DNA of 23,478 nucleotides from a virus. A program made the translations under genes and the position numbers. The stretch lies in IMG/VR virus record IMGVR_UViG_3300038365_000177; one strand, 5' to 3'. Every line of letters starts with the position of its first letter. Position 1 is the first letter of the stretch. Below the pieces are notes generated by a model. It had not been told where the DNA came from and did no database searches. It was given only the letters and a program-made list of their open reading frames with translations. Shown in pieces: positions 11,695 to 23,041 of this stretch.

Positions 11695-11740
11695 TTGCTA
11701 TATGCGAACGCTTATTCAATTGTACCAATATATCCTGGGC

Positions 11741-12376
11741 ATGAGGCAACCGAGCAAGATCGCATTATTCATCACATTATTGATCGCTCTGTCAGTGGTC
11801 GTTCCTGGGACCGCCAAGGCGGAAAGCGGGACCGAAGTCATATCGGCCGGTAAGATACTTTCGTGGCAACTAGACCTTCCCGCCGGAGGACATATCAGCT
11901 ACGACATCGAGGTCGTGAGCGGCGGGAACATCAACGTGTATGTCATGAAAGAGAGCGAATATAACAGGATGTCCAACGGCATGTCGTTCGAGTACAGCGC
12001 GGACGGCTCAAGGCAGAACACCAAACACGCGGTCGTCTCCATGGACGTGCCATCGGGGGACTACCGCTTGGCGATCGTGAACGACGAGTTGGCGTCCTCC
12101 ACCGTTCGGTATGACCTCGATGGGACCCGCTCCAACATGGGGGCGGCCATCCTAGGCTTGGTGTTCCTGCTGGTCGTGGCAGTGATCGTGGTCATCGCCC
12201 TGGTCCTTGTATGGAAGGCGATTCGAAAGAAGGCAGTCGGACCGTACCCGCCCGCTGCCTATGCGCCGATGCCCGTTCAAGTCTGGTACTGCCACAACTG
12301 CGGACGTCCGATTCCGCCGGACGCGATCGTATGCCCGTACTGCGCTCAACAATTGAGAAAGCCTGGAACCCCCTGA
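11741..12376 (+). CDS. Membrane protein with extracellular beta-sandwich, TM and C-terminal zinc ribbon (alternative start 11702)
   Basis: Signal peptide ALFITLLIALSVVVPGTAKA. TM AAILGLVFLLVVAVIVVIALVLVW. Cytoplasmic CHNCG..CPYC. Confidence 0.8.
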   Translation: MRQPSKIALFITLLIALSVVVPGTAKAESGTEVISAGKILSWQLDLPAGGHISYDIEVVSGGNINVYVMKESEYNRMSNGMSFEYSADGSRQNTKHAVVSMDVPSGDYRLAIVNDELASSTVRYDLDGTRSNMGAAILGLVFLLVVAVIVVIALVLVWKAIRKKAVGPYPPAAYAPMPVQVWYCHNCGRPIPPDAIVCPYCAQQLRKPGTP

Positions 12377-12709: not shown

Positions 12710-13216
12710 TTATTTTCTCTCTTCTTGCCCTTCGCTCTCGGCGAGCTTCTCCCGAAGATATTGCTCGACGCTCGATCGGACGTGCTTCTTCCAGTTGCCC
12801 CTGATGCCGTTGAACTCGTACCTGCCCTCGATAAGTAGGTCCTCGAACTGAGGAGCATCGAAGACGACATGGTAGGAGTTCTGAGGTGCGGGGAGAAGGG
12901 ATATTCTCGTTAGTTCGCTTTGCTTGATAGGTTCTCCACCAAAGGACCCCCCGTCCGACATGACGCTAAGGAATTCGGCCCATTGGTATAGTTTAACTTC
13001 TTCGTCGTTCACGCTATCCTCCAAGTAATTCAAGCAGACCCGCATGGCGACGATCGGGTTTCGGTACGCATACACCTTGATCCCGTTCACCTCGAACTTC
13101 TCGGCCTCGTTGCCCCAATCGTCGAGCCCGTCGTCCTCTTCGCCCCCGAGGTCGACCCCGAGCTCGTCGTTCTCATGTCCTGCACCTTTGGTTTCTTGTT
13201 CTGTGTTGTCTTTCAT
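12710..13216 (-). CDS. 168-aa acidic hypothetical protein coupled to the recombinase gene
   Basis: TAAATG junction with the upstream gene, SD AGGAG, protein-like composition. Confidence 0.75.
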   Translation of the reverse strand: MKDNTEQETKGAGHENDELGVDLGGEEDDGLDDWGNEAEKFEVNGIKVYAYRNPIVAMRVCLNYLEDSVNDEEVKLYQWAEFLSVMSDGGSFGGEPIKQSELTRISLLPAPQNSYHVVFDAPQFEDLLIEGRYEFNGIRGNWKKHVRSSVEQYLREKLAESEGQEERK

Positions 13217-13801
13217 TTACATCTCTCCTTGCGTTTGCTCTTCATCGAACTCATAATCGAAGTCCCCGATCTCCTCCATAAGCTGCGCTCCGCTCATGAT
13301 CGAGTAGTTGCGGACCGCGACCTCCAATGTGCAGCCCATCCAATGAGGGACCTGATAGATGGTCATGCCCGCGCCGCTCTCATTCTTTGGTCGGAGAAGC
13401 CAAATGCAGTAGGTGTGACGCATGGTGAGGCACGACACGCCGTCATACCCGGCCCGTTCGCCGATCTTGCGAAGGATCTCGTCGTAATGCTTGTTGCTTT
13501 TCGCCGGCGAGGAGAGGAACTTCTCGATAAGGGAGATCTCGTCCTTCCGGATGGGGAAGGAGCGGAGGGTCTTGTTCGTCTTCGGACGCATCCACGACAG
13601 GTATCGGGCTTTGCCCTCGCGGAGAATCTTCGGCCGCTCTCTCGGCTTGCCGTTCCGCTTCCTCGGATTGCAGAACACCGAGGAGTGCATCCCGGTATTG
13701 AGGAGGAGGAGAACGAGACCCCGCTCGTAATCGTCACGGCAAGCGCCGAGCATCTTCAATTTCACGTCCCTGTCGGTGATCGGATACTTCACGGTTCCCA
13801 T
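13217..13801 (-). CDS. Tyrosine recombinase/integrase-like protein, catalytic domain only (194 aa), with atypical catalytic residues
   Basis: Box I LLLNTGMHSS, RPKTNK, box II SCLTMRHTYCIWLL...MGCTLEVAVRNY. SD GGAGG. Confidence 0.8.
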   Translation of the reverse strand: MGTVKYPITDRDVKLKMLGACRDDYERGLVLLLLNTGMHSSVFCNPRKRNGKPRERPKILREGKARYLSWMRPKTNKTLRSFPIRKDEISLIEKFLSSPAKSNKHYDEILRKIGERAGYDGVSCLTMRHTYCIWLLRPKNESGAGMTIYQVPHWMGCTLEVAVRNYSIMSGAQLMEEIGDFDYEFDEEQTQGEM

Positions 13802-13802
13802 G

Positions 13803-13964
13803 TTACTGTCCCTCCGTCTGTAACCCAGTCATCTCGCGGTATAGGAATAGGTTACAGAACCTTATGGTTTTATTTAAAGGAGGTAGTTGGACGGCCTCCC
13901 GCGCCCGTCCCGATTTTTCATCCTCGCTGTCGGACCTTCGGCCCTCTTTTGCGACGGCCCTCAT
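13803..13964 (-). CDS. Possible 53-aa hypothetical protein
   Basis: ATGA overlap with the upstream stop and TAAcATG junction to the recombinase, but it overlaps the putative promoter. Confidence 0.3.
   Translation of the reverse strand: MRAVAKEGRRSDSEDEKSGRAREAVQLPPLNKTIRFCNLFLYREMTGLQTEGQ
13817..13878 (-). promoter_or_regulatory. TATA box (TTTAAATA) and 9-bp inverted repeat upstream of the recombinase
   Basis: Plus-strand tatttaaa at 13871-13878. tctgtaacc (13817-13825) and ggttacaga (13850-13858). Confidence 0.5.
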
Positions 13965-14224
13965 GGTGCGGCCTCCGGGATGTGATAGACTCCTTGGGCA
14001 TCCTTCCGATAGTACCTCTTCTTCCTGCCTTCGAAGAGGATCCCGCTGAATATCTCCATCGTGAACTCGGGTCGGACCGTCCGCACGATGACGGACGGCG
14101 GATATTTGCCGTGTCCGCAACAGCAGGACACCGTCTCGATGCCGTGCGCTCGAAGGTAGTCGATCAGCTTCACCATGCAGGGGTCGATGTATCGGCTGTC
14201 GTTCTTGGGGTCGAATTCACACAT
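13961..14224 (-). CDS. 87-aa phage-type protein with IDPC...TVSCCCGHG motif
   Basis: SD GGAGG. Cys/His cluster resembling an uncharacterised phage family, loosely similar to the Tyw3 TTSSCSG motif. Confidence 0.7.
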   Translation of the reverse strand: MCEFDPKNDSRYIDPCMVKLIDYLRAHGIETVSCCCGHGKYPPSVIVRTVRPEFTMEIFSGILFEGRKKRYYRKDAQGVYHIPEAAP

Positions 14225-14251
14225 GTTACGCTCCCTCCGACCGGTCAGCCT

Positions 14252-14362
14252 TCATGGAGCATCCCTCCGCCGGAGCTCCCGCCACGAGTAGCGGGGGAAG
14301 AACACGAGGTACTCGGCGACGCTGTATGCGAGGTCGAGCATGAGGCGGAGAGGTTTAGACAT
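14252..14362 (-). CDS. 36-aa hypothetical protein
   Basis: MSKPLRLMLDLAYSVAEYLVFFPRYSWRELRRRDAP. Overlaps the upstream stop, with SD GAGGT. Confidence 0.4.
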   Translation of the reverse strand: MSKPLRLMLDLAYSVAEYLVFFPRYSWRELRRRDAP

Positions 14363-14726
14363 ATACCTCGCCCCTCCAGCCGAACTCGTCATTCAGGAGC
14401 AGTTCGTCCAAGCCCTCCTTGGAGAGCCGCACCCATGCGTTGTCGTAATGTTCACCCTCTACCAAGCTTCTCAGGCGGATCACCTCCTCCAGGAACTGGA
14501 GGATGGCCTTGTCAAGATTGGCCTCGCGCACGTCATACCCGCCTTGGGAGCCTTTCTCAAGCTCTCTCCATCCCCTAGTGACGATATATGGCGTGGCCAG
14601 CTTCTCCTCTAGGTCCTCGCGCTCCCTAGCCTTCCTCTTCCTCCGCCCGTCGACCTCAGTATAGATCACCAGGGCGGCCCCTAATACAAGCGCCCCTATC
14701 GCTATTATCGAGCCCATGTCGTTCAT
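14355..14726 (-). CDS. 123-aa protein with N-terminal TM anchor
   Basis: SIIAIGALVLGAALVIY followed by a basic patch. ATGA overlap with the upstream gene. Confidence 0.75.
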   Translation of the reverse strand: MNDMGSIIAIGALVLGAALVIYTEVDGRRKRKAREREDLEEKLATPYIVTRGWRELEKGSQGGYDVREANLDKAILQFLEEVIRLRSLVEGEHYDNAWVRLSKEGLDELLLNDEFGWRGEVYV

Positions 14727-15811
14727 TGGTTGCCTCCATTTGCCGGTAAATACGCCCCGGCCGGCGTTTCATTCTCGGACTGCCGCGAACGAAGCCAAGA
14801 GAGCCCCCTCGCGGAGTAGTAGACGACGAAAACAACTCCGACCGCCGCCCATGCGAGGGTCAAGACCTCGAAGGTGGCCGTCAGCACGTCGAGAGGGAAG
14901 AACTCCGCCCACATGGTCATGAAATTATTGGCGAAGTGGAAGGTTATCGACGCCCACAGGCCGACCTTGAGGAAGAGGTATCCCATGATGAGGCCTCCGA
15001 CCGCCGCCGGGATGACCTTATAGGCGTCCCAGGCCCACAGGTGGCCGAGGCCGAACATGGCGGCGGAGAAGAGCATGAGCGCGGCCTCGCGGTCCCCGAT
15101 CTCGATGTCTCCGCCTAGGATGTATCGCCGGAGGTCCTTGCGCTTCTTCGCGGCGGCGTCGAGGACGAGCAGCGGGATCCCGATGAGCAGGACGCGGGTG
15201 ACGAGCTCCTCCCATACCGAAGCGTGGGCGAGGGACGCGAGGCTCTGCCATAGCGGGCGGGCCTCGAAGTCCGGCGAGGACGCTCCGCCAATCAGGTCAG
15301 CGAAGTAGAAGCTGGCGATGTTGACGGCCAGCAGCGCAAACCACATTGTCGCTATGAGGAACGCGGGGGAGTGCTCGACCACGATCCATCTGTGGCTCAG
15401 CTCTCTCCGGAACTTGTAGCGAGACAGCCTCGCGGTCCACCAGGCGCTAAGGACGATGGCGATGGCCAGGATGGAGTACCAGAGCGAGGCGGCCAGGCCG
15501 TCGAGATGAGCGAACGGCACCAGGAACGGCGTGATGACGAAGAGCGAGACGCGGCCGCTCTCTGGCATGACCAGGGCGGAGCCCAAGAGCAGGGCGATCA
15601 GGTTGAGGGCCAGGACGGCGAGGAACGGCAGGGCGGCCCACGCTCCGAGCATGGTGACGCCGGTCCGGGCGGCGTTTCTTAGCCGTGCCGAGAGCCTCCT
15701 GGGGCATGGCCCGTCGATGGTGCAGCTCACATGCTCATCAATCATGCTGATCGCCTGGTGGGGGCATCCCAGACAGGCTTTCGGGTGGAGATCCCTTCTT
15801 CTCAGTCCCAT
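14723..15811 (-). CDS. CPBP-family (Abi/CAAX, Rce1-like) intramembrane glutamic endopeptidase with a Cys-rich N-terminal extension
   Basis: Multiple TMs. Motifs WEELVTR (EExxxR), FGLGH (FxxxH) and HFANN (HxxxN) are intact. Confidence 0.9.
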   Translation of the reverse strand: MGLRRRDLHPKACLGCPHQAISMIDEHVSCTIDGPCPRRLSARLRNAARTGVTMLGAWAALPFLAVLALNLIALLLGSALVMPESGRVSLFVITPFLVPFAHLDGLAASLWYSILAIAIVLSAWWTARLSRYKFRRELSHRWIVVEHSPAFLIATMWFALLAVNIASFYFADLIGGASSPDFEARPLWQSLASLAHASVWEELVTRVLLIGIPLLVLDAAAKKRKDLRRYILGGDIEIGDREAALMLFSAAMFGLGHLWAWDAYKVIPAAVGGLIMGYLFLKVGLWASITFHFANNFMTMWAEFFPLDVLTATFEVLTLAWAAVGVVFVVYYSARGLSWLRSRQSENETPAGAYLPANGGNQ

Positions 15812-16002
15812 ATCATGCCTCCGTCGATCTCGCTTCTCATGAGTTCCTTCTCGCGGCGCTTCCGCCGCCTTGCGTTCTCATTGTGCTGGCGCTTGCATAT
15901 GCGACAGTGGCCCATGCAGAGCTGCCAGAACGGGTGGTATGTCGGCCCGGAGTAGCCGCCGCCGATCGGGTGGCGGTTGTATGCTCGTTTAGTGCGTGTC
16001 AC
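15802..16002 (-). CDS. 66-aa basic protein with a CxxHCxxC cluster
   Basis: GTG start overlaps the restored stop of the MTase (GTGA). Its 3' end carries the SD of the CPBP gene. Confidence 0.6.
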   Translation of the reverse strand: MTRTKRAYNRHPIGGGYSGPTYHPFWQLCMGHCRICKRQHNENARRRKRREKELMRSEIDGGMIWD

Positions 16003-17038
16003 GATTGCTCACTCTCCCACTGGTCCACCCTCGGTATGTTCAGCATGGCCCTTTCCTCGGCCAGCCTGCCGTACTCCGGGTTGATCTCGATGCCGATGGC
16101 CTCGATGTCGTTCTGTCGGCAGTATTCCAGGACGGTCCCACTCCCGGCGAAAGGGTCCAGAACTACCCCCCCCCAGATGGACAGCCGGCGCGGATCATTC
16201 GTTCAATGAGCGCCGTTGGGAACGAGGCGAAGTGGCTCCCACGGTATCCCTTGGTGGGGATGGACCACACTGATCTCATGTTCCTAGTGATGGTGGCCTC
16301 GCGCTTGCCTACCCAATAGCTGTGGTTGCCAGCATCCTTCATCTCCAGGTTCTTCGGACCGCCAAAGGCGTAGTCGTAACGCTTGATGCTGGCCTCCTTC
16401 ATCGGCTCCTTCTGCTGAGCGAAATAGTGGTCGTTGGCGAGGGTGAAGAAAAGGACATCCTCATAGTCGACGGTGAAGCGGTCTGCGATGCTGGACGGCA
16501 TGGCGTTCGGCTTTTGCCAGATGATGCGGTTACGGAGCTTCCAGCCGTGCTCTGACATGGCCAGGGAGAAGCGGGAGGGGACCTGGAGCAGGCCCTTGTC
16601 CTCGTAGGAGTCGCCGAGGATGACCCAGCAGGTGCCCTTGGGCGAGAGGACGCGCTTCACTTCATCGAAGATGCCTACGAGATGCTGGATGAACAGATCC
16701 GGGGTCGGTTCGAGGCCAAGCTGGCCACGCCACGCACCGCATAGAGAGCAGGAATAGCCCTTGTGCAGCCTGCCAGACGTGTTGCTCCTGGCCTCTTCCT
16801 GCCCCCTAGTGTTCCCGAAATCTCGCCCGTCATGATCTCTCCTGGGGCGCATTACCTTGCTCCCCTGGTCCATCCAGTCGTGAGGGCAGAGCGGATCGCC
16901 GCCCCAGATGAGGGGCTCGGTTCCGTAGTCGCGGAGGAGGTAGTATGGCGGGGAGGTCACGACGCAATCGACCGAGGCCTCGGGGAGCGTCTTGAGCACA
17001 TCGGCGCAGTTGCCGACGATCAGGCGCTGGCCGGTCAT
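15999..17038 (-). pseudogene. Beta-class N4C/N6A DNA methyltransferase, frameshifted at a G9 tract (OFF state or sequencing indel)
   Basis: Motif IV VTSPPY is N-terminal. The reading stops at GGG GGG GGG TAG (16163). G7 or G10 restores GVVLDPFAGSGTVLEY...IGIEINPEY, ending at TGA 15999, which overlaps the next GTG. Confidence 0.9.
16166..16174 (-). repeat. Poly-G9 tract (C9 on the plus strand)
   Basis: Counted directly. Second-longest homopolymer I found in the window. Confidence 0.9.
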
Positions 17039-17103
17039 GCTCCGCCCCCTTGGATCCCGAACTCGGCCTCGAAGTCCCTTATGGACGTCTGATCATCATC
17101 CAT
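17035..17103 (-). CDS. Possible 22-aa coupling peptide MDDDQTSIRDFEAEFGIQGGGA
   Basis: SD GGAGG upstream and ATGA overlap with the N4/N6 MTase start. Confidence 0.35.
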   Translation of the reverse strand: MDDDQTSIRDFEAEFGIQGGGA

Positions 17104-17591
17104 CAGCACTCCCTCCATGATGCCATCCGTCCAGAGTGGCTTGTCGTCCGCCGTCGATCTGTTGGGACAGAACGACGATGATACTGGGGAACGTGGCCGG
17201 AGCCGCCGTCCCCCCCCCCCCCTTCGGATTCGAACTTGAGGCGGCCGCGAACGAAGCGGACCTCTGCCCCAATGTCCAGCAAGCGGTGAAACCATCTGGT
17301 GTCGGTCCTGGCCGGCAGGAGCATGACTATCCTAGTGCAGCGGTGCGACTCCTGGATGGCCTTATCGATCCATTGGGCGATGACAGCGCCGTATGGGGGG
17401 TTGACGAATACTGAGCCGTCCCACGGCTGGGCGAGGCCATCTTCCTCCACGGTGTAGTGTCGTTCACACTTGGCGTTGCTGTGTGAACTGGCCGGGTCCA
17501 GGTCGAAGGAGAACTCCTCGTCCAGTTCGATGAAGAGGTCGCGTGGGGTACCCCACTCGCACGTTTTGGACGTGGCCATGTAGCCGGCCAT
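17096..17591 (-). pseudogene. Phage Dam-like N6-adenine DNA methyltransferase (PF05869-type), frameshifted at a G13 tract
   Basis: EWGTP, FDLDPAS, VNPPY, LLPARTDTRWF and RGRLKF motifs. G12 restores the family-type end APATFPSIIVVL with a stop at 17096. G13 gives an aberrant tail stopping at 17103. Confidence 0.88.
17210..17222 (-). repeat. Poly-G13 tract (C13 on the plus strand)
   Basis: Counted directly. Longest homopolymer I found in the window. Confidence 0.9.
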
Positions 17592-17908
17592 CAGCGCACC
17601 CCCACGAGGTCAGAGGGTTTGATCGCCGAGCGGCTATGACGGCCCTGCTTGCATGCCCTCTCATGCATGATCAGGATGCCCCTGTTTCGAAAGATGCGGG
17701 GGCAGTGGGCGCACTTAAAGCCGTCATCCGGGTCGGCGAGCGGCAGCTCGTCCTTGTATCTCTCCTTCCAGGCCTGGAATAGGTCGCTCCGCTCTCTGAC
17801 CGGAAGCTCGCCGTGCACTCTGTTGATATGAGTGCGGCAGCTGGTGCCAGCGCGGGGCAGACGGGCATCACATCCCTCGACCGGGCAGGGGGCGCGGCCG
17901 TCGTCCAT
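17591..17908 (-). CDS. 105-aa protein with two C2H2/C2HC zinc fingers
   Basis: CPVEGC...HINRVH and CAHC..F.....L..HERAC. TGATG overlaps at both ends. Confidence 0.8.
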   Translation of the reverse strand: MDDGRAPCPVEGCDARLPRAGTSCRTHINRVHGELPVRERSDLFQAWKERYKDELPLADPDDGFKCAHCPRIFRNRGILIMHERACKQGRHSRSAIKPSDLVGVR

Positions 17909-18218
17909 CAGCGACCACCGCCCCAATCCTCGCCGGTGATCCGCTTGAACAGCATCTCCAGGTCCCGGTCGAAGGCTCCCTGTGGGATGGGGTCGGACTT
18001 CATCGGCTTGACCCGCCGGATGATCCAGTCCATGACCTCCACCTTCTTGTTGGGGAACCGTTCAGCCTTCTTCTTCTCCAGCAGCTTCTTGAGAGCGGAG
18101 GCCTCCACCCTAATCTTGAACCTCTCGGCCCGGAAGGTCCGGTACTTGAGGCCTTTTCCTCGACCTCCTCGGAGACTTCCAGCGTGACCTCGTTGAGCTC
18201 CAGGTCCATTTGTGGCAT
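17908..18218 (-). CDS. ~103-aa hypothetical protein split by an apparent -1 frameshift at GAGGAAAAG
   Basis: SD + ATG 18218 frame gives MPQMDLELNEVTLEVSEEVEEK. Protein-like sequence continues in the -1 frame (GLKYRTFRAERFKIRVE...WGGGR), whose stop overlaps the next ATG. Confidence 0.6.
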
Positions 18219-21433: not shown

Positions 21434-23041
21434 CTAACACCTCACGTTGTTCCATGTGTCATCCCCAACCCCGGCTCGGCGGCCGGGAGACGCTCTGAGG
21501 GCGATCGCCCCCTTCCCGGCCTTCTTGCCTTTCTTGTTCTTCCGGCGCTTGTTGACCTGCGCCGGATCCCAGGGACGGACCATCTTCTGGCCCGAGTCAG
21601 ATGTAGAATGATGTATGTCCAGAGCCGAAACGAACTGGCTCGGCGGCTTGGGAAGTGGTTTGCTCTCCGGCTCAGGCGGAGGTAGAGGTGCCTGGGCCGG
21701 AGGCGCTGCCGTGGAGGATCGGGAAACGAGGAGCTCGGCGATCTGCCCGATGGCGTCAGCCACCTTGGTCAGAGCGTTCTCGTTGTCCCTGGTGCGTTCA
21801 GAAGTTTTGGCCTGGGCAGCGATCAGGCCCTCGATCTGCTTGTTGTGAGCTGAAATGGTGCGTATGATGGTCCGGACGTCCTGCTGCATGTCCTCTTGGT
21901 TGCGAGATGACTTGAACATCTGGGCGTTGATGAGGAGGGGGTTGGTCCCTCCCTGCATCAGGGCGAGGAAGGCGTTGAGGTTGTGATCCTCATAGTTTCC
22001 ATGCTCCAGGCAAGCCTCCTCCCGTACTACCAGCTCGTCGCCGAGTATCTTCTCGTAGCTGCGGTACAGCCAATCCTCGAACTGCTGGACGGTGCAGCAC
22101 AGCCGCCCCGCTCCGGCAATCTCGTGCTGGCCGGAAATGTCGTTGTTGAAGTGGCACCGCTCGATGAAGAAGAGTGACTGGATGTCGAGGAACCGGACCC
22201 CGGTCCGGGCGGAGAAGATGCCGTCCAGGCGTTGAAGGGCAGCGCGGAACTCGGGAGCGCCGAAGGGAGCCTCGGAGTTGGCGAAGATTATCTTGACGGT
22301 CCCGGTGCCATAGAGCTGGAACTTGATCTTGTAAGAAGCGAAGTCGAAGGTCTCCTGGACGCCGCCCTTGAGCTCCTTGAGCTTGTGCGCTCCGGCCGTC
22401 CACCGCTGATAGAGGCCGTCCGGGTGGAGGGTGTTGAAGAACTGCTCGATGAACTCGGAGCCGGCGAAATCGGGGGTGGGGGGGCGCGATAGGGAGGGTA
22501 TCTTTTTGTAACTTCCTATATCAGCCTTTGCATAATTTTCCCTCACTGGCCCCCTATCGGCATCCTTGCCTTGTTCCGAGGCTTCTTGAGGGGCATCTTC
22601 TAGGGAGTAGTGAACGTCACGGAAAAGGGTGCTGGCCTCCGACCTGTCGCGTATGGCCTTGCGGATGTTCTCCCGCTTGAACGTGAGGTGAAGATCATGG
22701 ACCTTGGGCAGCGACGCCTTGGTCCCGTCGAACATGAGCTCCTTGTTGAGGATTGCGTCCCGCGACAGCTCGGGGACCTTCCATCCCGTCTCGCCGCGGA
22801 CGACCATTTGCTTGCGCTTCATCCGTTGCAGGGTGGGATTCACTGTACCTACTGGCAAGCCGGTCCGGAGGGCTATGATCTTGTTAGAGATCTCGATCTC
22901 GGAAGCGCGGAGTGAAGCGAGGATCTTGTCCTCGGCTGAGCGCTCCCGAGGGGCCTTACCTTTCGTGGTCGATGATGGGGAGGTACTGCAACTCGTTACA
23001 TCGAGTTGCGAAGAGTTGCAACTTTGACCGTTCGCGATCAT
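21434..23041 (-). CDS. 535-aa protein with N-terminal winged HTH, Rep_trans/MobT-like core motifs, coiled coil and basic tail; candidate replication initiator/relaxase
   Basis: wHTH EDKILASL...TGLPVGTVNPTLQRM...GWKV. TBP-like FQLYGTGTVKI. IERCHFNND, RSYEK and VREE occur in Rep_trans motif order. Confidence 0.55.
   Translation of the reverse strand: MIANGQSCNSSQLDVTSCSTSPSSTTKGKAPRERSAEDKILASLRASEIEISNKIIALRTGLPVGTVNPTLQRMKRKQMVVRGETGWKVPELSRDAILNKELMFDGTKASLPKVHDLHLTFKRENIRKAIRDRSEASTLFRDVHYSLEDAPQEASEQGKDADRGPVRENYAKADIGSYKKIPSLSRPPTPDFAGSEFIEQFFNTLHPDGLYQRWTAGAHKLKELKGGVQETFDFASYKIKFQLYGTGTVKIIFANSEAPFGAPEFRAALQRLDGIFSARTGVRFLDIQSLFFIERCHFNNDISGQHEIAGAGRLCCTVQQFEDWLYRSYEKILGDELVVREEACLEHGNYEDHNLNAFLALMQGGTNPLLINAQMFKSSRNQEDMQQDVRTIIRTISAHNKQIEGLIAAQAKTSERTRDNENALTKVADAIGQIAELLVSRSSTAAPPAQAPLPPPEPESKPLPKPPSQFVSALDIHHSTSDSGQKMVRPWDPAQVNKRRKNKKGKKAGKGAIALRASPGRRAGVGDDTWNNVRC
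22988..23023. repeat. Hairpin (8-bp stem gcaactcg/cgagttgc, 6-nt loop) plus 10-bp palindrome agttgcaact
   Basis: Arms at 22988-22995 and 23002-23009, palindrome at 23014-23023, all inside the 5' end of the 535-aa gene. Confidence 0.85.

Follow-up and report, generated by a model that had tools for sequence, protein, structure and literature searches.

It is well established that repeats turn bacterial methylases ON and OFF, and several independent switches can coexist in one bacterial genome (PMC13076061, a review; PMC6321876). Phages, too, are reported to have poly-G tracts, namely in the methylase of Bordetella phage BPP-1 and in receptor-binding genes of Campylobacter phages, and T2 and T4 to have contingency loci (bioRxiv 10.1101/2025.10.21.683753). 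Here we analysed two adjacent DNA methyltransferase (MTase) genes in a 23,478-nucleotide (nt) stretch of DNA catalogued as viral, IMG/VR record IMGVR_UViG_3300038365_000177, the whole of which is referred to as the window. Each of the two genes carries its own poly-G tract, and natural copies that are otherwise identical vary in length, with the variation restricted to these tracts. We consider it likely that the tracts are hypermutable contingency loci which switch both methylases ON and OFF by slippage.

Two methyltransferase genes and their poly-G tracts

The genes and tracts under study are the following:

17096..17591, minus strand: MTase 1, a phage-type N6-adenine DNA methyltransferase of the Dam family (PF05869) with an NPPY motif
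17210-17222: poly-G tract 1 within MTase 1, C13 on the plus strand, reading G13 on the coding minus strand
15999..17038, minus strand: MTase 2, a beta-class N4/N6 DNA methyltransferase (PF01555) with SPPY and FAGSG motifs
16166-16174: poly-G tract 2 within MTase 2, C9 on the plus strand, reading G9 on the coding minus strand

No homopolymer of the window other than these two tracts exceeds 7 nt; the next longest is a single G7, and the rest have 6 or fewer. An earlier note on this DNA, made from the sequence alone, had singled out these two runs as the longest, and its coordinates proved exact. Both tracts lie inside MTase open reading frames (ORFs) and the frame of each gene breaks exactly at its tract. 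Repeats of about 8 or more units within an ORF, long enough to slip, are the mark of a contingency locus, and G13 and G9 are both of such length. The number of such runs expected by chance was taken from a first-order Markov model of the window, with which dinucleotide shuffles agreed. The model predicts 0.005 G/C runs of at least 13, which makes the G13 exceptional. Furthermore, the two MTase genes make up 6.8% of the window, and the probability that both longest runs fall in them is about 0.005. Of the Gly codons outside the tracts 23% are GGG, and in the genes examined mixed codons encode the three further Gly-Gly-Gly tripeptides. With GGG thus a minority Gly codon, the poly-G runs are not the default encoding of glycine.

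MTase 1 starts with the ATG at 17591. Its G12 allele is in frame and encodes 164 amino acids (aa) up to the stop at 17096-17098; G15 would likewise be in frame. The G13 allele of the window is frameshifted and encodes 162 aa (17591..17103, stop at 17103-17105), with an aberrant tail of 35 residues. The G11 allele, a form that occurs naturally (P0005), reads on to a TGA overlapping the ATG of MTase 2 (ATGA). Between 17035 and 17209 the three frames that follow tract 1 hence stop apart, at 17096 for G12, at 17103 for G13 and at the ATGA overlap for G11; owing to these different ends, the length of tract 1 could alter translational coupling into MTase 2.

The window protein matches PF05869 with 103 bits over profile positions 11-126 of 169, and the match ends exactly at tract 1; in the in-frame allele P0004 it is lengthened to 11-145. 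With 103-107 bits, as compared to a cut-off of 28.1, and with VNPPYG present, MTase 1 belongs to this family. The equivalog model TIGR01712 scored 86 bits, below its cut-off of 97, and MTase 1 is therefore a family member and not a certified equivalog. In addition, the PADLOC model for orphan MTases, PDLC03726, matches it over the full length. An AlphaFold model of the in-frame allele, built from 56 sequences (mean predicted local distance difference test, pLDDT, of 74), has the predicted fold of a class I N6-adenine methyltransferase. In this model the Gly run encoded by tract 1 forms a predicted low-confidence loop (residues 122-127, with pLDDT below 50 at 125-127) between a strand at 119-121 and the strands at 128-131 and 136-142. 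According to the model, tract 1 thus sits in the flexible loop of the last hairpin, which tolerates three to five Gly. Out-of-frame MTase 1 loses the last core beta strands (PATFPSIIVVL) and, judging by its sequence, should be inactive.

MTase 2 starts with the ATG at 17038 and has motif IV (SPPY) near the N-terminus and motif I (FAGSG) at the C-terminus. The in-frame G10 allele encodes 346 aa. The G9 allele of the window is cut to 291 aa (17038..16163) by a TAG at 16163-16165, directly after the run, and the G11 allele encodes 343 aa with an aberrant tail. Tract 2 lies immediately upstream of the strand of motif I that binds S-adenosylmethionine (SAM), VVLDPFAGSG. The window protein matches PF01555 over profile positions 1-182 only; positions 185-221, and with them the VLDPFAGSG motif, are found in the next frame (16163..16002, minus strand). 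In the in-frame allele P0244 the match covers positions 1-221 with 143 bits, and both SPPY and FAGSG are present, as in a complete beta-class enzyme. Out-of-frame MTase 2 loses SAM-binding motif I (the FxGxG strand) and should likewise be inactive.

Across both genes, Pfam matches reach the C-terminal motifs of the family in the G12 and G10 alleles only. In the window the matches stop at the tracts, which agrees with the claim of the earlier note that a C-terminal motif of each MTase lies out of frame. The lengths that it gave as restoring the frames, G12 for MTase 1 and G10 or G7 for MTase 2, turned out to be correct when the window DNA was translated with altered tracts. As to the specificity of MTase 2, its relatives in the PDB include both N4-cytosine and N6-adenine MTases; the SPPY motif and the JGI record, which names P0244 cytosine-N4-specific, suggest N4-cytosine.

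Length variation among natural copies

Variants were searched in a collection of 5.8 billion proteins, and those recovered came from independent JGI, ENA, NCBI and Logan assemblies, several of the contigs being 58.8-59.4 kb long. The tract length of each variant was deduced from its protein, by altering the window DNA only in run length and then translating it. Near-identical copies of both genes occur in all three frames downstream of the tracts, and window DNA with the tracts set to different lengths yields six proteins that are identical to database entries at every residue:

MTase 1, G11: P0005 (184 aa), third frame
MTase 1, G12: P0004 (164 aa), in frame, reading ...GGGGTAAPATFPSIIVVL...
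MTase 1, G13: P0003, the form of the window, out of frame
MTase 2, G9: P0243, out of frame, in the window and in an ENA contig of 58.8 kb
MTase 2, G10: P0244 (346 aa, five contigs), in frame
MTase 2, G11: P0123 (343 aa, two contigs), third frame

A comparison of homologous loci had been proposed in the earlier note as a check, and with G11, G12 and G13 in MTase 1 and G9, G10 and G11 in MTase 2 it rules out one fixed length among the relatives. MTase 2 is in frame on eight contigs (five with P0244 and three with P0245) and out of frame on five (two with P0243, one with P0246 and two with P0123). The OFF allele G9 is found in two sublineages, with Ile7 and Phe7 respectively (Ile7Phe marks P0246), and the Phe7 sublineage also has the in-frame P0245. 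The presence of G9 in both suggests that the OFF state arose more than once. Judging by the listed contig sizes, a 59.4-kb NCBI contig has both genes ON, and both are OFF in the window and in an ENA contig of 58.8 kb.

Five further genes of the window (1488, 623, 535, 362 and 194 aa, about 3,200 codons) served as controls and were compared in the same protein collection, with four to eight variants per gene that came, judging by the listed contig sizes, from the same assembly set. No frameshift variant was found in these five genes, whose length differences all stem from the choice of N-terminal start codon or from contig ends. The G7 run of the window lies in the 535-aa gene and is stable across the variants. 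Hence the indel variation is confined to the two long tracts. General indel noise of the assemblies was rejected since the control genes are clean, in line with the argument that the earlier note had drawn from the intact long genes, and fixed pseudogenes were rejected since in-frame alleles are common.

Two in-frame MTase 1 alleles, P0247 and P0248, differ from P0004 only in one or two residues after the Gly run, where they read GGGGPAAP and GGGGTGAP compared to GGGGTAAP in P0004; their point changes are concentrated at the 3' border of tract 1. A separate kind of change was seen in MTase 2, where P0245 (three ENA contigs) is an in-frame allele with a deletion of 20 aa. The 60 nt that are missing from it are bounded exactly by an 8-bp direct repeat at 16335-16342 and 16395-16402 (TCCTTCAT on the plus strand, ATGAAGGA in the coding sense). 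From the sequence, the deletion looks like a repeat-mediated event between the catalytic and the SAM-binding motifs.

Proposed slippage and its alternatives

Strand slippage during replication of the element, whether free or integrated, would gain or lose single G's, and each change of length would shift a gene among one in-frame and two out-of-frame states. The tracts would change independently, and the population of the element would thus be a mixture of methylation states, of which the window would represent one, with both genes OFF. From the alleles described above we infer slippage as the cause, the inactivity of the OFF alleles, reversibility and a purpose, which would most likely be bet-hedging. 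Methylated copies may escape classical restriction; unmethylated copies may escape methyl-dependent restriction or, when integrated, may be spared the cost of host-chromosome methylation. The in-frame and out-of-frame alleles found between assemblies and the clean state of the other genes give partial support to the phase-variable cassette proposed in the earlier note, which would be viral and would have up to four methylation states; for its setting in an archaeal virus a published case was not found.

Several points weigh against such switching. The Markov model predicts 0.61 G/C runs of at least 9, and a G9 taken by itself is not unusual for this composition, so that the argument from chance rarity made in the earlier note holds for G13 and fails for G9. 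The 77% identical MTase 2 relative P0124 reads CPPGGTVLDPF and has no tract. Only the combinations ON/ON and OFF/OFF could be deduced, from three contigs. Finally, all the variation lies between assemblies and is read at the protein level from consensus contigs, and a run of G11-G13, as other long G runs, is error-prone on every sequencing platform.

The last of these points could be taken to mean that G12 and G10 are the only true lengths of the element and that the other lengths are errors of homopolymer sequencing or assembly. MTase 1 was also found on fewer contigs than MTase 2, as could happen if assemblies break at the G13 run. Nevertheless, to have miscalled a run of 9-11 nt in 5 of the 13 consensus contigs, short-read consensus calling would have to err far more often than it usually does, and consensus callers give the majority length. 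Moreover, the same G9 allele recurs on three contigs that belong to two sublineages and come from two data sources, and the control codons of the same assemblies, which include the G7 run and several 6-mers, are free of frameshifts. We therefore regard miscalled lengths as an improbable explanation, although individual calls of G11-G13 may be in error.

The lineages further away from the window bear on the age of the tracts and on whether they are maintained. Lineages of 91%, 70% and 67% identity also have, at the protein level, a Gly run with indel differences in the place of tract 1. P0006, from the 91% lineage, has five Gly, one more than the in-frame allele, and its protein implies an in-frame G15; P0009 and P0250 differ by one Gly, and P0008 leaves the frame of P0249 at the Gly run. 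The 76% lineage (P0007) has no Gly run at this site. Tract 2, which has no counterpart in P0124, looks younger.

These lineages also bear on the possibility that the tracts are real hotspots of mutation with no evolved switch, in dispensable cargo methylases that often break on the way to pseudogenes. Such decay would fit the window and one 58.8-kb contig that are OFF in both genes, the missing tract 2 in the 77% relative and the lineage with the 20-aa deletion in MTase 2 (P0245). It would fit less well with ON and OFF copies that are identical at the protein level apart from the tract and have no secondary lesions, and with in-frame alleles that are in the majority. In addition, an unselected run is expected to become interrupted, whereas the Gly run with its indels persists at the MTase 1 site down to 67% identity, and the runs are made throughout of the minority codon GGG. 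On balance, decay appears unlikely, although somewhat less so than miscalled lengths.

RNA polymerases can slip on long homopolymers, and some leaky expression of the OFF alleles is plausible. If recoding were programmed, an out-of-frame length would be the normal one, and transcriptional slippage or ribosomal frameshifting would yield the full-length enzyme. One conserved out-of-frame length would then be expected; instead, the in-frame length is the commonest and all three frames occur, and no single out-of-frame genotype is conserved in all the relatives. Nor was a stimulatory element noticed, although no search was directed at one. This makes programmed recoding very improbable as compared to phase variation at the level of the DNA.

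In a more far-reaching reading, the two tracts together would act as a combinatorial epigenetic switch, carried by a virus-like element of archaea. Every population would then contain four methylation states, which would decide which host strains can be entered; when integrated, the element would reprogramme host expression as an archaeal phasevarion on a mobile element; and the length of tract 1 would set the delivery of ribosomes to the MTase 2 start via the ATGA overlap of the G11 form. Taken as a whole, we find this combination doubtful.

The element, its host and the described systems

The MTase genes sit in a tightly packed operon on the minus strand and are flanked by two small genes:

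15802..16002, minus strand: 66-aa Cys/Arg-rich gene, whose GTG overlaps the in-frame MTase 2 stop (GTGA)
17591..17926, minus strand: 111-aa zinc-finger-like gene, upstream, whose stop overlaps the MTase 1 ATG

Neither of the two matched a family in Pfam, NCBIfam or PADLOC, and the 111-aa gene showed no restriction-enzyme signature. PADLOC gave no match on seven nearby genes, and no restriction enzyme was found among the neighbours tested with Pfam and NCBIfam, where the only neighbour with a Pfam family was the Rce1-like CPBP gene at 14723-15811. Because no nuclease gene was found among these neighbours, a restriction-modification pair was rejected and both methylases were treated as orphans. 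Furthermore, families of capsid, tail and conjugation proteins were not found in the window, nor was a tRNA gene. A 467-aa ORF on the plus strand (13175-14578) overlaps three minus-strand genes, among them an integrase-like gene (13217-13801), and has no family match; it is probably a shadow ORF of GC-rich DNA and not a gene.

Copies of the element recur on contigs of about 59 kb. The 535-aa Rep-like protein (21434-23041) is also encoded on a 272-kb contig, most of its other copies being on contigs of about 59 kb, which fits an element that is both integrated and free. The nearest Atlas clusters of the CPBP protease (14723-15811) and of a zinc-ribbon protein (11702-12376) are almost all archaeal, with Thermoplasmatota prominent. 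The host is thus probably archaeal, as suggested by look-alike searches of these two unrelated proteins, which serve as leads. No copy of the element was found among the genome, metagenome and viral contigs or the GenBank phages and plasmids that were scanned, where the only relatives were methylases of at most 60% identity. Outside the clade the closest methylase relatives are those of bacterial gut phages, with about 50-60% identity, and the methylase genes were probably acquired horizontally.

Should the archaeal assignment be true, mobile elements of methanogen-type archaea would use slippage on anti-restriction methylases, and natural ON and OFF alleles would already be present in public metagenomes. 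For annotation, methylases of this kind that appear frameshifted are not to be recorded as pseudogenes or silently corrected. Linking the element to hosts in metagenomes by its methylation would give results that depend on the sample.

A further set of poly-G tracts was observed in Dam (PF05869) genes of bacterial gut and environmental phages (loci L031-L096), where a G7-G10 tract lies some 160 nt from the gene start, at the PWGG codons. Examples of these tracts are:

L046, 5170-5178: poly-G tract in a phage Dam gene
L081, 6158-6166: poly-G tract in a phage Dam gene
L096, 6158-6167: poly-G tract in a phage Dam gene

At 13 of the 29 loci examined the Dam gene is split into two frames exactly at this tract. 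The phage genes are of the same family as MTase 1 and share about 50% identity with it; their tract lies at about codon 59, before NPPY, whereas that of MTase 1 lies at about codons 123-127, in the last hairpin loop. At its own PWGG site the window reads CCG TGG GAC GGC, with no run. The differing positions and the lack of a run at this site imply that the two Dam tracts arose independently. From these sequences, poly-G switching seems to have arisen repeatedly in the Dam methylase family.

Phase variation by repeat slippage is textbook bet-hedging of host-adapted bacteria and has been recognised in phages only recently. In the literature searched we found no described case in an archaeal virus or plasmid, and a paper on P2-like phages of Burkholderia (PMC3091744) contained nothing on poly-G methylase switching. 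The statement in the earlier note that no archaeal-virus case was known to it accordingly stands for archaeal viruses, while a poly-G tract in a phage methylase is already on record.

As in the bacterial phasevarions, such as the poly-G/C restriction-modification genes of Helicobacter pylori and Campylobacter, a simple repeat lies within the ORF and a change of its length would switch the enzyme. Unlike those chromosomal Type I and Type III mod genes of pathogens, the genes described here encode small orphan methylases on an archaeal-looking mobile element, and their tracts lie near the 3' end instead of the usual 5' end. What defines a phasevarion is that the state of the methylase changes the expression of multiple genes, an effect that is a mere possibility for the present element. 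The phage poly-G cases (BPP-1, Campylobacter phage, T2 and T4) resemble it in that frameshift variants are made by homopolymers, in one case in a methylase. In contrast to those bacterial phages, virion genes could not be recognised in the part of the element that the window covers, the other proteins of the element look archaeal, and two adjacent methylases here each have a tract of their own. The proposed mechanism, slipped-strand phase variation, is an ordinary one of a known kind; the novelty lies in where it occurs, on an archaeal-looking element on which two adjacent orphan methylases would each have an independent switch.

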